Below are positions 8,686-15,218 of a stretch of DNA of 28,016 nucleotides, piece by piece. Source of the DNA: an uncultured archaeon. Its GTDB lineage: Archaea; Aenigmatarchaeota; Aenigmatarchaeia; QMZS01. Positions within the stretch are counted from its first letter, which is position 1. Each line of letters opens with the position of its first letter. Both the position numbers and the translations under genes were made by a program. The notes beneath the pieces are model-generated. The model ran no database searches. It was not told the DNA's origin and saw only the letters and a program-made list of their open reading frames with translations. The stretch spans positions 1 through 28,016 of the forward strand of contig CAZCGS010000001.1 in assembly GCA_964498505.1 (NCBI GenBank). The letters run 5' to 3'.

Positions 8686-9171
8686 TTAAATTGATTGGCC
8701 TAGCTTTTTAGCCTTTTTATCGCACCATACCACTCGATCTGCCAAATATTTATATCTATGCTCCTCTGTTTTATCTTTATCATAGATATGGATAACCTTT
8801 ATTCCCTTTAGCACCAAATCATCAGCTATAAACCTTCGATGACACCTAAACCATAACCTTTCAGCACAAATCAGGCAAATCCTTTTCTCTTTTCCCAGCT
8901 CAATTACCTTCTCCAAACCCTTTTTATATTCTTCTGTTTTGGTATATGCCAGATAGCCCTCTTTCCTATACCCTCCGAGCTCCTCCAACCAGATATAGTC
9001 TATTCCTTCTTTAGGCAGGACCTTTTCCAAATTTTCCTTTGAAAACCATGGATATCTTTTAGAGGTGGGAAAGTGCCTCACATCAATAACTACTTCTATT
9101 TTAAAATGCTTTAAAATTTCAAGGAATTCTTCTAAGGCTCTTGTAGATGTTCCTAAGGTATAGATTTCCAT
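8686..9171 (-). CDS. DUF488 family protein
   Basis: IYTLGTS, IDVRHFPTS, YIWLEELGG and CLICAE...CHRRFIAD. Confidence 0.88.
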   Translation of the reverse strand: MEIYTLGTSTRALEEFLEILKHFKIEVVIDVRHFPTSKRYPWFSKENLEKVLPKEGIDYIWLEELGGYRKEGYLAYTKTEEYKKGLEKVIELGKEKRICLICAERLWFRCHRRFIADDLVLKGIKVIHIYDKDKTEEHRYKYLADRVVWCDKKAKKLGQSI

Positions 9172-9178
9172 AAATTTT

Positions 9179-9904
9179 TTAGCATAAACTCTTTAGAAAC
9201 TCTCCGATTTCCCTTATGGATTTCACTCTTGAAAGAAGTTGATTAAAATCTTCTCTATTCCCATATTTTTTACGATAAGCTTCTATAAGCTTTTCATACC
9301 TATTTGGATCTGTTACAAAAGTGCAATCAATTACATGAAGTAAAATATATCTGTTAGTCTCTATTTGTAGTTCATTATCCTTGTCAATAGTGATAAAAAT
9401 CAGTTTAATATATTGAGTATTTTTGGTTTTCTCTAATTCTCGTTTCCAAAAGGCAGTTTCTGTCAATCTTTCCCTTAGGCTAGTTTTGCATGAGACAATA
9501 GCTTTTACCAAATTAGTTCCCTTCTCAACAATAACCATATCAACATCAGGGAAAATATCACTCCAATTACGAATTACAATCTGGTCTCTATGTTGAATTA
9601 ATGCAATATCACCCATTAATACCAAAAGTTTATTACCAAGCCCATTTTTTGCTATCACCTCTTGAATAGATTTAAAGACAGCATACTCATACAAAGAACC
9701 TTTGCATGTTTTCCATGCTTGATCTTTGCCTCTTTGCTCTTTGTAAAATCTGTTAAGTAAATTCCTCAATCTTCTTTCTGCAATAGAATCAAACTCCTGA
9801 ACAGCCCTTAGGTAATCTCCGTTATATTTCTCCTTCGCTATTGTATCATATCCTCTCTTCAATAAGTTTAAAACCTCTTCCTTACATTTAAATCCTCTTC
9901 TCAT
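9179..9904 (-). CDS. Type II restriction endonuclease, BsaWI/CCGG-family-like PD-(D/E)xK nuclease
   Basis: WKTCKGSLYE, FPDVD and AIVSCKTSLRER. Overlaps the MTase gene by 17 nt. GAGGT SD upstream. Confidence 0.75.
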   Translation of the reverse strand: MRRGFKCKEEVLNLLKRGYDTIAKEKYNGDYLRAVQEFDSIAERRLRNLLNRFYKEQRGKDQAWKTCKGSLYEYAVFKSIQEVIAKNGLGNKLLVLMGDIALIQHRDQIVIRNWSDIFPDVDMVIVEKGTNLVKAIVSCKTSLRERLTETAFWKRELEKTKNTQYIKLIFITIDKDNELQIETNRYILLHVIDCTFVTDPNRYEKLIEAYRKKYGNREDFNQLLSRVKSIREIGEFLKSLC

Positions 9905-10730
9905 CTTCTCTTACCTCAAATAGCCTTTTCTGGAACAATTTACCTTCTTTAGTTATACGCATTTTTGCCAACTTGCAATATTTCTCATCTATTTCCACTC
10001 CAATACCTCTACGATTTAATAAAGCACATGCTATAAGCGTTGTTCCACTTCCTAAAAACGGGTCTAATATTGTATCTCCAACAAAACTAAAAAGTTTTAT
10101 ACATCTTTTTGGTAATTCAATTGGAAATGGGGCAGGATGTCTTACCCTTTTTCTACTTTCTCCGGGAAAATTCCAGACACCTTGCGTCCATTCCATAAAT
10201 TCCTCCTTTGTGATATCTGAGATTCCGCCCCTTAATTTAGACCACCTTTTTTTATAAAAGATAATGATCACCTCCACTGGTGCTATCACATAAGGCGCCT
10301 TTGCACTTAGCCAAGATCCCCAAGCAGTTCTCCTTGAAATATTTCCCTCATTCCATATAATTGTAGAAAAATATTTCCATCCTACTTTCTTAGCAATTTC
10401 TACTATATCTGCATATACACTTTGAAATCCAGCTTCTGTTCTTCCCTTACTTTTGTCAAGTGGTATGTTCAGGCACAACCTACCATCAGGTTTTACTAAC
10501 TCTAAAGCCTTTGAAAGCCATTTCTTGGTAAATTCAAGATATTTTTCGTATGGTATATCGTCTTCAAAGGAGTTATAATGAATATCTACATTATACGGTG
10601 GTGAGGTAACAATTAAATCTACAGAATTTTTTTGTATAAGTTCTGTTTTTAAAAAATCATCATTAATGACTATAATTTTATTTTCCCAATTAAAATATAT
10701 CTTATCATTTTTCAAAATACCAAAAGGCAT
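9888..10730 (-). CDS. Beta-class amino DNA methyltransferase (N4-mC favoured by the SPPY motif)
   Basis: Motif IV TSPPY near the N-terminus, HPAPFP, and motif I DPFLGSGTT near the C-terminus. Confidence 0.92.
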   Translation of the reverse strand: MPFGILKNDKIYFNWENKIIVINDDFLKTELIQKNSVDLIVTSPPYNVDIHYNSFEDDIPYEKYLEFTKKWLSKALELVKPDGRLCLNIPLDKSKGRTEAGFQSVYADIVEIAKKVGWKYFSTIIWNEGNISRRTAWGSWLSAKAPYVIAPVEVIIIFYKKRWSKLRGGISDITKEEFMEWTQGVWNFPGESRKRVRHPAPFPIELPKRCIKLFSFVGDTILDPFLGSGTTLIACALLNRRGIGVEIDEKYCKLAKMRITKEGKLFQKRLFEVREDEKRI

Positions 10731-10759: not shown

Positions 10760-12091
10760 TTAAATTTTCTCCGAAAGTTTTTCTTTCAATTTTTCTATCA
10801 AATATTTGGAGGCTAACGCAGGCTTACAATCCTTCACAAGCTCGTAATCCTTTTTCTTCACAATTGAGATTAGCCTTAGATTTAAATCCTGGCACGCCTT
10901 TTTCAGGGCTGTTAAACTCTCGGATTCCGGTCTAAAATATGCGAAAAAAGGTTTTCTATAATTTTTTGCGTGCGCCTTCAAATAATTTTTGATTCTCCGG
11001 TAGGTAACTTTTACATACAATTTTTTTATCTCCTCTGTTTCCCTCCATTCCTCCCAATCATAGGAATTGAAAGGATAGTAATTTACAAACTCTCTCGGAA
11101 TAACTCCAGGAGAGGAAATAGCAATTAAATGCAACTTATTTAAAGCTTCTATCTCCTTCAAAGCTTGCAAAATAGCCCTCCAGGTTTTTGATTTCGGATA
11201 GGGCTTTTTGTAAGAACAAGGTAGAAAAAGGGGGAATTTGCCCTTTGGAGGTTTGTAAAATCTAACAAAAAAATCCTGCCAAACCTCATAATAAGGATGG
11301 ACCAAAAATTCCCTTCCTACTCCCTTTAGCCTTTTCCTTGCCCAACCCGGAAATCTCGGGATGTAATTGAAATTATTAAAATCTATCTCAACTTTTATAC
11401 CTTTTTTTCTTAGGTAGGGCTTTACCAAACCATAAAACTGCTTTTCATCCAAGGGTTTCCATTTTAGGGATATGTAATCCTTCCATAATTCTGAATTGTA
11501 ATGAGGGTAGGTATTGATGATAACAACCTCATCACTGTATTTTTCTACCAACTCAAAGCTCTGCTTTAAAACCTTTTTTTGAAGCTTCCTGTTTTCAAAA
11601 AGTTCTTTGCAGCAATTTACCAGCAAATAGGTTCTAACCTTACATTTTAAGGAATGCAATAGTTTGCACGCCTTAACATAATCCCTTACTCTAAACCCTT
11701 TGTTTATCATCTTTAAAATCTTATCATCTCCAGCTTCCAATCCAATAGCAACTATCAATGTAAACTTTCTGCCGAGCAAAGGGTCCAAATTTTCTTTTTT
11801 TATAAATTCGGGTCTAGACTCTATAACCAACTCCTCTATTTTATATTTCCCCACCACCTTTCCGACCCACTCCAAAAATTCTCTATCGAACTGCTCCTTA
11901 TCCAAAAAACTTCCAGAGGAAAAAATTTTCAGCCTTTTTATTCCCTTATTTTTCTCCAAGAAATTCAGGAGCTTTTTCTTTAAATGCTTCAAATCCTTTT
12001 TTACCTCCTTTCTTCCCCAACCGCAGAAGTAGCACTTTCCCCACCAGCATTTCCCTGATTCCAAAATAATGCTTGCCTCTTCTCTTTCCAT
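10760..12091 (-). CDS. Fusion of a RaSEA-like radical SAM domain and an ArcS catalytic-type DUF5591 domain; putative single-chain archaeosine synthase
   Basis: N-terminal half: CWWGKCYFC, KIFSSGSFLD, IESRPEFI, VAIGLE...INKGF and TYLL (RaSEA/TIGR01210-like). C-terminal half: LFLPCSYKKPYPKSK and ISSPGVIPRE...YPFNSYDW (DUF5591-like). Confidence 0.8.
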   Translation of the reverse strand: MEREEASIILESGKCWWGKCYFCGWGRKEVKKDLKHLKKKLLNFLEKNKGIKRLKIFSSGSFLDKEQFDREFLEWVGKVVGKYKIEELVIESRPEFIKKENLDPLLGRKFTLIVAIGLEAGDDKILKMINKGFRVRDYVKACKLLHSLKCKVRTYLLVNCCKELFENRKLQKKVLKQSFELVEKYSDEVVIINTYPHYNSELWKDYISLKWKPLDEKQFYGLVKPYLRKKGIKVEIDFNNFNYIPRFPGWARKRLKGVGREFLVHPYYEVWQDFFVRFYKPPKGKFPLFLPCSYKKPYPKSKTWRAILQALKEIEALNKLHLIAISSPGVIPREFVNYYPFNSYDWEEWRETEEIKKLYVKVTYRRIKNYLKAHAKNYRKPFFAYFRPESESLTALKKACQDLNLRLISIVKKKDYELVKDCKPALASKYLIEKLKEKLSEKI

Positions 12092-13863: not shown

Positions 13864-13949
13864 TATTGTGGATTGCACGAAAAAAATTTAAAAAGATAAA
13901 TAGAAAAATTCGGCTATTGTATTATTTAACCTAAGCTTTAGAAATTATT

Positions 13950-15218
13950 ATGCAGAGTTTCATGGAGTTTGTTTTTGTGCTGAGTAGGGCGCCAAGCGAA
14001 TACGAAAAGGAAAAATTGGAAAAATTTGTAAAGACTCTGGTTCCGAAAATTATAAAGGAAAAAAATTCCCTTAAAAATTTGGAAGTTCATTACGATAGAA
14101 TATTTTTGGAATATTGCACAGAAAAAATTCCTGCCCACAGAGCATTACCTAAAATAGTTAAGGAGTTTGAAAATTTTCTACATGAATTTAAGATAGGCCT
14201 TAGAGACTGCTATGCAAAAAGGTACGAGTTAAGATTGAATGTAAAAGGCGAAGGGATAAAAGATATTGAAATCCCTTTCGTAAAATCGTGTAAAGCTATA
14301 GATAGCAAAGCAACCATTGTCCTGGAACTTTTGGATTATTCCTTTTTCAGTAAGGGAAATATGGATAGGTTGCTGAAATTGGTAAAAGAAAAAATAAAAG
14401 GAAAAAGCAAGGAAATAGCTGAAATTGTTGAGGTTCGGGAGGAAGAAAAGGATTTGAGGAACGGAAAGGAAATTCTGAACCTTTACTCCTTAGAAAACCT
14501 GTTATCTCCTGAAATTTCCGGGCTGTATTTTGAAATTAAAAGGGAAATAGAAGAAAATCTGGAGGAGAAAGGATTTAGTAAGGCAGTTATCTTCCCTTTT
14601 AGAAATAAAAAGGAACTCATCCAAAAGTTAGGAAAGTTGAATATAAACCCGGAAGACCTGAATTTTCTGTATATCCTCAACCACAAGAAAAATAAGGAAA
14701 TGGAGAGAATAAAGGATAAGTTTAAAATTTTACTTGAGCTCGATGAGGAGGAAATGAAGGAAAATATTAAATTGATCGGTGTTATGAATTTGGGATACCT
14801 TGAATTGTGCATTCCTTTTTCAGGGAAATTCATCTCAAAAGAAAGCATCCCCCTAAAAATATATTCCGACCCAGAAAAAAGGATTGCTGGAGTTATAATG
14901 AGCTATCCATCCGATGCCGATAATTTTATGGAAGAACTTACAAACTTTTTAAAAGATATTTTAAAAAAATTCGGTTTGGGATACAGGGTAAAAAAAGTAG
15001 GGAATAGAATAGAATTGGAATCAAAGTCGAAAAGAAATAAGTGGATAAGTATTGCCAAGGTTATGCCAAACAAAAATCTCGGAAATCTTTTAAATATAAA
15101 GAGTAATAATGGCTATTTAAGCTGCACAGGTTTCGAAATCGATTTAGAAAATTTATTGATAGCCTATTTAGCCCATCATCCAAGCATCAAAAATGAGAAA
15201 AAGATAAAAATCCTTTAG
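13950..15218 (+). CDS. Degenerate paralog of methanogen-type seryl-tRNA synthetase (SerRS2), predicted catalytically inactive
   Basis: N-domain matches: AHRALPKI...FKIGLR, EIPFVKS and DRLLKLVKEKI. Motif 1-like GFSKAVIFP; IPLKIY. Motif 2 is missing and motif 3 reads DLEN rather than GLER. Confidence 0.72.
   Translation: MQSFMEFVFVLSRAPSEYEKEKLEKFVKTLVPKIIKEKNSLKNLEVHYDRIFLEYCTEKIPAHRALPKIVKEFENFLHEFKIGLRDCYAKRYELRLNVKGEGIKDIEIPFVKSCKAIDSKATIVLELLDYSFFSKGNMDRLLKLVKEKIKGKSKEIAEIVEVREEEKDLRNGKEILNLYSLENLLSPEISGLYFEIKREIEENLEEKGFSKAVIFPFRNKKELIQKLGKLNINPEDLNFLYILNHKKNKEMERIKDKFKILLELDEEEMKENIKLIGVMNLGYLELCIPFSGKFISKESIPLKIYSDPEKRIAGVIMSYPSDADNFMEELTNFLKDILKKFGLGYRVKKVGNRIELESKSKRNKWISIAKVMPNKNLGNLLNIKSNNGYLSCTGFEIDLENLLIAYLAHHPSIKNEKKIKIL

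Follow-up and report, generated by a model that had tools for sequence, protein, structure and literature searches.

What would a small archaeon that has a complete seryl-tRNA synthetase (SerRS) use a second, degenerate one for? The question is raised by a gene at positions 13950-15218 on the forward strand of the stretch analysed here (the window, 28,016 nucleotides of contig CAZCGS010000001.1, assembly GCA_964498505.1, from an uncultured member of the Aenigmatarchaeota). Its product, which we call pseudo-SerRS2, is a relative of type-2 (methanogen-type) SerRS from which the catalytic residues have been lost. On balance, we favour the view that this pseudo-synthetase, descended from type-2 SerRS, serves to bind, specifically and without catalysis, tRNAs that carry a long variable arm, with tRNASer as the likeliest ligand.

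The gene is complete, and its ATG start coincides with the N-termini of 14 orthologs in the alignment. The product can be divided as follows:

13950-15218 (+): complete open reading frame (ORF) of pseudo-SerRS2, 422 residues plus stop codon, with an ATG start; read from the sequence, and aligned end to end with type-2 SerRS by hhalign.
13950-14399 (+): N-terminal tRNA-binding domain (N-domain), residues 1-150, the best-conserved part; from PF18490, model confidence, invariant columns and a ratio of non-synonymous to synonymous substitution rates (dN/dS) of 0.05-0.10.
14400-14507 (+): linker, residues 151-186, of low model confidence, aligned by hhalign with the helix-rich linker of type-2 SerRS.
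14508-15215 (+): predicted degenerate catalytic-domain fold (C-domain) of a class II aminoacyl-tRNA synthetase (aaRS), residues 187-422; from VIA-align and Foldseek.
14571-14597 (+): GFSKAVIFP, aligned by hhalign with the motif-1 region of type-2 SerRS (G-F-x-E-I-x-L-P-K).

Searches with the single sequence gave weak matches. Used alone against the PDB with phmmer, pseudo-SerRS2 weakly matched the SerRS of Methanosarcina barkeri and Methanopyrus kandleri, and an exhaustive single-sequence HMMER search gave eight weak matches, mostly genuine type-2 SerRS. In word-indexed searches for homologs, the protein query returned one match and the profile query two, the candidate list being saturated by K/E-rich words, and an ESM Atlas feature search gave weak leads only (score <=0.86), to truncated class II aaRS-like clusters. 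PF18490 (tRNA_bind_4), the tRNA-binding domain of methanogen-type SerRS, matches residues 37-150 (E 4.6e-10, 40.1 bits, cut-off 25), and NF002120 matches at the N-terminus only (E 1e-10), its 40.9 bits falling short of the 611 set as equivalog cut-off; genuine type-2 SerRS relatives in the same class score 416-492 bits. The same family-model search gave no match to TIGR00415 or to the carrier-protein ligase model NF005479.

The relationship extends over the whole protein once profiles are compared. A profile built from an alignment of 15 pseudo-SerRS2 orthologs (A1, shallow at 15 rows) matched 3w3s (E 1.9e-20) and 2cim (E 6.5e-14) in the PDB, and when hhalign compared A1 with nine aligned genuine type-2 SerRS (A2), the match spanned 409 columns, from the N-terminus to the C-terminus, at 99.92% (E 7.3e-35). 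KIGLRD, MDRLLKL, GFSKAVIFP, IPLKIY, KWISI and the C-terminal strand all fall on their type-2 counterparts. The AlphaFold2 model built on A1 has a mean predicted local distance difference test (pLDDT) of 61, with values of 75-94 in the N-domain (59-68 at residues 101-120), 70-87 at residues 310-375 and below 40 at residues 210-309; a single-sequence model (mean pLDDT 37) was unusable. With the predicted model as query, Foldseek placed 2cja, 2cim and 3w3s at the top (E 1e-17), with the carrier-protein ligases derived from SerRS ranking next. VIA-align gave Z scores of 15.3 and 15.2 to the two type-2 SerRS over residues 1-422; for residues 166-420, many class II cores reached Z 12-15 (about 3 Å over 170-200 residues). 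The class II catalytic-domain fold is thereby predicted to be kept, with low confidence at residues 210-309. A homodimer prediction (2 x 422 residues, on A1) scored 0.36, against a mark of 0.42 and a best control of 0.38, a result that speaks neither for nor against a homodimer.

Because the profile and hhalign matches are joined by the Foldseek and VIA-align fold matches, homology of pseudo-SerRS2 with type-2 SerRS from end to end is confirmed. An initial annotation made from the DNA alone had proposed an intact frame of 422 residues, its full-length alignment with Methanosarcina-type SerRS2 and each of the landmark motifs, and all three proposals hold. It had also called for a comparison with M. 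barkeri SerRS, and the fold matched there is type-2 SerRS itself, not an unrelated one.

Pseudo-SerRS2 shares with the type-2 enzymes (2cim and 2cja from M. barkeri, 3w3s from M. kandleri) a two-domain architecture, the PF18490 N-domain and the class II core fold. It differs from them in being about 90 residues shorter, in a shortened insertion between motifs 2 and 3, and in its coexistence with a type-1 SerRS (SerRS1). It also differs in the loss of the first motif-2 strand and loop, the motif-3 arginine and the zinc ligands, which lie in three segments of the C-domain:

14805-14819 (+): LCIPF, vestige of the AQC-P-PF segment with the first zinc-ligand cysteine; from the alignment.
14847-14891 (+): IPLKIYSD/PEKRIAG, site of the 19-residue motif-2 deletion, followed by the remnant EKRIA with alanine at the zinc-ligand glutamate; from the alignment.
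15117-15152 (+): LSCTGFE-IDLEN, aligned with L-W-T-G-C-x-G-I-G-L-E-R; from the alignment.

Nine residues are invariant in A2: C302, R332, E334, R343, F347, R349, E351, C461 and R468. They belong to the AQC cysteine, to motif 2 (R-x-E...G-G...R...F-x-R-x-E), to the G-C-x-G cysteine and to the motif-3 arginine; C302, E351 and C461 agree with what we take to be the Cys/Glu/Cys zinc ligands of type-2 SerRS (Bilokapic et al. 2006). In the paralog family, these catalytic residues are deleted or replaced, and the first zinc cysteine is kept only in the source genus, with glutamate in the other three genera. A 19-column deletion between D307 and P308 removes the first motif-2 strand and the loop with the class II ATP-binding arginine, a block corresponding to S-G-P-S-Y-R-W-E-S-G-G-x-H-G-L-E-R-L-N of the genuine enzymes. 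What is left of the second strand reads EKRIA in place of EFHRIE, so that the zinc-ligand glutamate has become alanine. The second zinc-cysteine position is glycine in the window protein and deleted in other genera, and the adenine-stacking phenylalanine is also gone. Finally, the motif-3 arginine has become asparagine (IDLEN, residues 397-401), as it has in 13 of the 14 family members, the remaining one having lysine. The first zinc cysteine, the second-strand remnant and the glycine at the second cysteine position indicate that the source genus retains more ancestral vestiges than the rest of the family.

In class II synthetases, both arginines are needed for adenylate formation. Since both are absent here, together with the zinc site, pseudo-SerRS2 is very probably catalytically inactive and would be unable to form seryl-adenylate; judged from the residues present, no family member appears to have a plausible ATP or zinc site. 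Motif 2, the motif-3 arginine, the zinc site and the equivalog score all place the protein outside type-2 SerRS proper. The initial annotation had likewise described a dead catalytic site, with the motif-3 GLER changed to DLEN. It was right that the motif-2 loop is lost, and wrong that about ten unrelated residues replace it: the change is a clean 19-residue deletion, with a recognisable remnant of the second strand after it.

A dismantled site may in principle have been rebuilt for other chemistry, with the N-domain recruiting a tRNA for an ATP-independent reaction on it, or for one in which Ser-tRNASer is the donor. The predicted retention of the class II fold would suit such an enzyme, as would the constraint on the C-domain (dN/dS 0.13-0.22) and two features conserved in most members, a motif-3 remnant (L-E-N) and a hairpin (K-G-K-S-G). 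We nevertheless consider it improbable. Besides the loss of the class II arginines, the adenine-stacking phenylalanine and the zinc site, the four genera share no constellation of polar catalytic residues. Of the eleven invariant columns of A1, one (P187) falls outside the N-domain, and of the eight nearly invariant ones, four (P234, P289, Y305 and I383) fall in the C-terminal half.

Pseudo-SerRS2 is not a peculiarity of one assembly. The paralog is present in 16 of the 17 genomes of one Aenigmatarchaeota GTDB family, in all four genera, as frames of 390-425 residues with no internal stops (where the matches list a stop, the match has run through the gene's own terminator at its end). Among the 301 genomes of the class sampled, it was found in no other family at a threshold of >350 bits to A1. 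The NCBI name of one member is hypothetical protein.

Where genomes were compared in pairs at unsaturated dS (0.4-0.7), the paralog has a dN/dS of 0.12-0.17 and SerRS1 from the same pairs one of 0.056-0.069; the paralog evolves about twice as fast. Within the paralog it is 0.05-0.10 in the N-domain and 0.13-0.22 in the C-domain. Pseudo-SerRS2 is maintained by purifying selection and is not decaying, which bears out the earlier suggestion that the gene is maintained. This already contradicts the idea that a displaced SerRS2 survives here as a decaying relic, without present function, an explanation to which we give very little credence. Its rate, its identity of about 20% between genera and its long branches (stems of 1.2-1.4 substitutions per site) are what a relic might show. 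Against this stand the intact frames in 16 very small genomes from four genera, a dN/dS far below 1 and the invariance of specific tRNA-contact residues. Useless genes seldom persist in genomes of <1.3 Mb, the size range in which this one has been retained.

In genuine type-2 SerRS, the N-domain grips the long variable arm of tRNASer and tRNASec and the elbow formed by their D- and T-loops. Ten of the eleven invariant columns of A1 lie in this domain, P187 being the eleventh. The residues of M. kandleri (Mk) SerRS that contact tRNA are known from the 3w3s complex (PMC3711452), and were mapped to the paralog family through the profile alignment. Two of the mapped sites concern the elbow nucleotide C56:

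13983-13985 (+): Ser12, equivalent to Mk Ser14, which contacts tRNA C56; serine in 15 of 15 orthologs (profile alignment; PMC3711452).
14190-14207 (+): KIGLRD, residues 81-86, in which K81, I82 and G83 correspond to Mk Arg93, Val94 and Gly95, which pack on C56 at the tRNA elbow (profile alignment; PMC3711452).

Within KIGLRD, G83, R85 and D86 are invariant in the family. The position of Mk Gly95 is glycine in all 15 orthologs, that of Arg93 is lysine or arginine in 14, and that of Val94 is isoleucine, leucine or phenylalanine. Elsewhere in the domain, Mk Arg90 corresponds to arginine or lysine in 13 of 15, Lys82 to lysine in 12 and Arg69 to lysine or arginine in 12. The elbow-contact residues have been retained, and because these contacts are kept and the invariant columns sit in the N-domain, binding of tRNA is the best-supported reading of pseudo-SerRS2. 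The binding itself, the tRNA concerned and the outcome of binding are what we infer.

Several observations weigh against it. The extra-arm contacts fare worse than those at the elbow: Mk Arg72, Glu75 and His150 are not kept in the paralog family, and Arg40 lies within a segment that the family lacks. The window protein itself has histidine and asparagine at the equivalents of Mk Arg90 and Glu86. Searches for tRNA genes (ARAGORN and RF00005) yielded no definable tRNASer set for these genomes, no conserved gene neighbourhood pointing to a partner was seen among the family loci compared, and a search for RNA-seq evidence found no RNA run listed. The C-domain, too, is under purifying selection and keeps its L-E-N remnant, a constraint that could mean a function beyond scaffolding. 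Since residues 210-309 have a pLDDT below 40 and the alignment beneath the model is shallow, with 15 rows, the former active-site pocket is poorly modelled.

Any role for a catalytically silent SerRS has to be considered alongside the active one. The source genome (686 kb in 81 contigs, 84% complete) encodes a full-length type-1 SerRS on contig 28 (TIGR00414, 522.7 bits, cut-off 301.65, positions 1-418, coiled-coil tRNA arm included). Pseudo-SerRS2 is not the only SerRS of this genome, which answers a check proposed with the initial annotation. Each refuting condition named there that could be computed (an unrelated fold, a sole SerRS, neutral decay) was put to the test, and none held. SerRS1 is present in 16 of the 17 genomes of the family. 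Descent from an aaRS with catalytic loss, an active SerRS elsewhere in the genome and purifying selection together identify the protein as a pseudo-synthetase.

A close counterpart is SLIMP, likewise a paralog of SerRS that is kept by selection, its active site ablated and its tRNA-binding domain retained (PMC10570016). SLIMP, however, derives from a type-1 SerRS, retains a coiled-coil arm and belongs to metazoan mitochondria, whereas pseudo-SerRS2 is archaeal and derived from type 2. Furthermore, SLIMP pairs with a SerRS2alpha that has lost its arm, while the active SerRS1 here retains its own, so that complementation in the manner of SLIMP is not needed. The parallel with SLIMP and HisZ drawn in the initial annotation is accordingly apt for a dead aaRS paralog kept by selection, and partial where SLIMP is concerned.

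The comparison raises a rival explanation, in which pseudo-SerRS2 is chiefly a protein-protein scaffold and tRNA binding is secondary; it would be a subunit of an ArgRS/P-stalk complex, or a SLIMP-like heterodimer partner of an active synthetase. We regard this as unlikely, though it has precedents. That atypical SerRS interacts with ArgRS and with ribosomal P-stalk proteins is documented (review PMC10817482), and in the SLIMP/SerRS2alpha pair it is the inactive subunit that supplies the tRNA arm (PMC10570016). Purifying selection acting on the whole protein, not on the N-domain alone, would also fit. The strongest conservation, however, is at tRNA-contact residues and not in the class II core. 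SerRS1 has its own tRNA arm and is of a different structural type from pseudo-SerRS2, and no syntenic partner gene was seen at the loci compared.

Among non-catalytic aaRS paralogs, the classic case is HisZ (PMC9437257), a class II relative retained for binding and not for catalysis, and its structure 1z7m is among the fold matches of the predicted model (Z 12.5). By analogy, pseudo-SerRS2 might be an allosteric subunit that senses serine on behalf of a metabolic enzyme, a proposal that we find hard to credit. HisZ derives from HisRS, is bacterial, keeps its amino-acid site and has no tRNA role; in pseudo-SerRS2, the zinc-dependent serine site is destroyed, and the domain that a HisZ-like subunit would not need, the tRNA-binding one, is the best conserved. 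No metabolic partner gene lies nearby.

The amino acid:[carrier protein] ligases (Bll0957 among others; 3mey, 4h2s; NF005479) share descent from type-2 SerRS with pseudo-SerRS2, and their C-terminal sheets superpose on the predicted model over 103 columns at 2.3 Å. These ligases have lost the N-domain and kept ATP binding, zinc and catalysis. Pseudo-SerRS2 is the inverse, as the initial annotation had put it, with the N-domain present, motif 2 and the zinc site absent and no NF005479 match.

We therefore return to tRNA binding and propose how it might have arisen. One Aenigmatarchaeota family would go back to an ancestor with SerRS of both types, in which the type-2 copy became a pseudo-synthetase. 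Seryl-adenylate formation would have been lost by deletion of the motif-2 arginine, change of the motif-3 arginine to asparagine and dismantling of the serine-binding zinc site. The class II fold would have been retained as a scaffold, and the globular N-domain, the most constrained part, for its grip on tRNA. Bound tRNASer might then be held, protected or presented to SerRS1, to a tRNA-modifying enzyme or to the translation machinery; alternatively, it might enter ribosome-proximal recycling, as proposed for the methanogen SerRS-ArgRS pair (PMC10817482).

The tentative suggestion can be made that, when SerRS1 displaced SerRS2, pseudo-SerRS2 remained as a stand-alone, non-catalytic tRNASer adaptor, its orphaned N-domain recognising the variable arm and elbow and handing the tRNA to SerRS1, a modifying enzyme or a ribosome-associated recycling complex. 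If so, it would be the first dedicated tRNA-presenting pseudo-synthetase in archaea. Presentation of this kind has a parallel in human SerRS-METTL6, where SerRS serves METTL6 as a cofactor that selects tRNASer, presenting it to this other enzyme through variable-arm binding (PMC11479938). The human SerRS is an active type-1 enzyme, and no methyltransferase partner of pseudo-SerRS2 was identified.

Because the deletion and the arginine-to-asparagine change are common to the family, a single origin of the paralog is indicated. Rooting was considered as proof of that origin and gave none, the tree of paralogs and type-2 SerRS being an unrooted three-way split of long stems. We infer as the simplest history an ancestor with both SerRS types, as in Methanosarcina, in which the type-2 copy lost catalysis.

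Across the class, SerRS1 was detected in 268 of 301 genomes and a genuine type-2 SerRS (about 510 residues) in 15 genomes of four other families. In at least nine of these 15, SerRS1 went undetected; both types occur together in two genomes of a single genus. The two types are nearly mutually exclusive in the class, a pattern that looks like repeated synthetase replacement within one DPANN class. A genome of the source genus (G001) contains a genuine-looking type-2 SerRS fragment with all catalytic motifs intact (contig C49, positions 1-1184; L018/L025; 416 bits to NF002120). It is cut at its 5' end on a 2.7-kb contig and stands in the tree beside SerRS2 from a different family (G025); either the contig has been mis-binned, or the genus has a third SerRS gene. 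No such genuine SerRS2 was found in the source genome, at 84% completeness. Two further proteins from the 50%-identity representative library, P0004 (215 residues) and P0005 (171 residues), consist of little beyond the type-2 SerRS N-domain; they may be either fragments from contig edges or tRNA-binding domains that stand alone. In the g3 genus, two of the three paralogs (L014:1240-2655 and L017:1369-2802) have a Pro/Glu-rich C-terminal extension that can be followed for about 45 and 75 residues before the contig ends in each case; the third (L011) ends normally.

Pseudo-synthetases have been known from bacteria (HisZ) and animal mitochondria (SLIMP), and pseudo-SerRS2 adds an archaeal case derived from type-2 SerRS. 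A 2022 review of aaRS duplications gives SLIMP and the carrier-protein ligases as the only SerRS paralogs (PMC9437257). In that review and in our literature searches, no pseudo-synthetase from archaea or from the rare methanogen-type SerRS was found, in keeping with the earlier remark that no described archaeal example was known. Pseudo-SerRS2 appears to capture an intermediate state of synthetase replacement, in which the displaced enzyme is repurposed and not lost. If it binds tRNASer as we propose, it would provide a natural, minimal and catalytically silent module recognising long-variable-arm tRNAs, and a handle on tRNA management in DPANN archaea.

As regards the tRNA complement, ARAGORN found three tRNAs in the 686-kb source genome, none of them in the window. 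Rfam RF00005 found 11 there (G000) and eight in the 96%-complete genome G006, several of them 100-190 nucleotides long. The low counts reflect either unusual genes (with introns, or split) or genes missing from the assemblies.

Upstream of the gene lies a polyprenyl synthetase gene in divergent orientation, and downstream a PCNA gene in convergent orientation; these are its neighbours in the source genus. The 71-bp spacer 5' of it contains the TATA-like box reported in the initial annotation:

13920-13929 (+): TATA-like box TATTATTTAA, about 25 nucleotides 5' of the ATG; a consensus match only.

From its position, TATTATTTAA is a candidate promoter of a leaderless pseudo-SerRS2 mRNA. Near-identical DNA of the gene is present in 20 metagenome runs, from hydrothermal vent and marine sediment. 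Elsewhere in the family, an ABC permease gene adjoins the paralog at one g3 locus, and in three g2/g4 genomes (L058, L059 and L065) a thermosome (Cpn60/TCP-1) gene lies directly upstream on the same strand, an association seen as synteny alone.

Two genes upstream of pseudo-SerRS2, a single ORF combines a radical SAM domain with DUF5591, an ArcS-type domain, and is a candidate archaeosine-pathway fusion acting on tRNA. A contig of the same genus (L066) has an ORF matching it in length and position, and its linkage to the paralog is not conserved in other genera. Further upstream is a type II restriction-modification pair, which a DUF488 gene adjoins:

10763-12091 (-): radical SAM-DUF5591 ORF.
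9182-10730 (-): BsaWI-like endonuclease (PF18643) overlapping an N4/N6 DNA methylase (PF01555).
8689-9171: DUF488.

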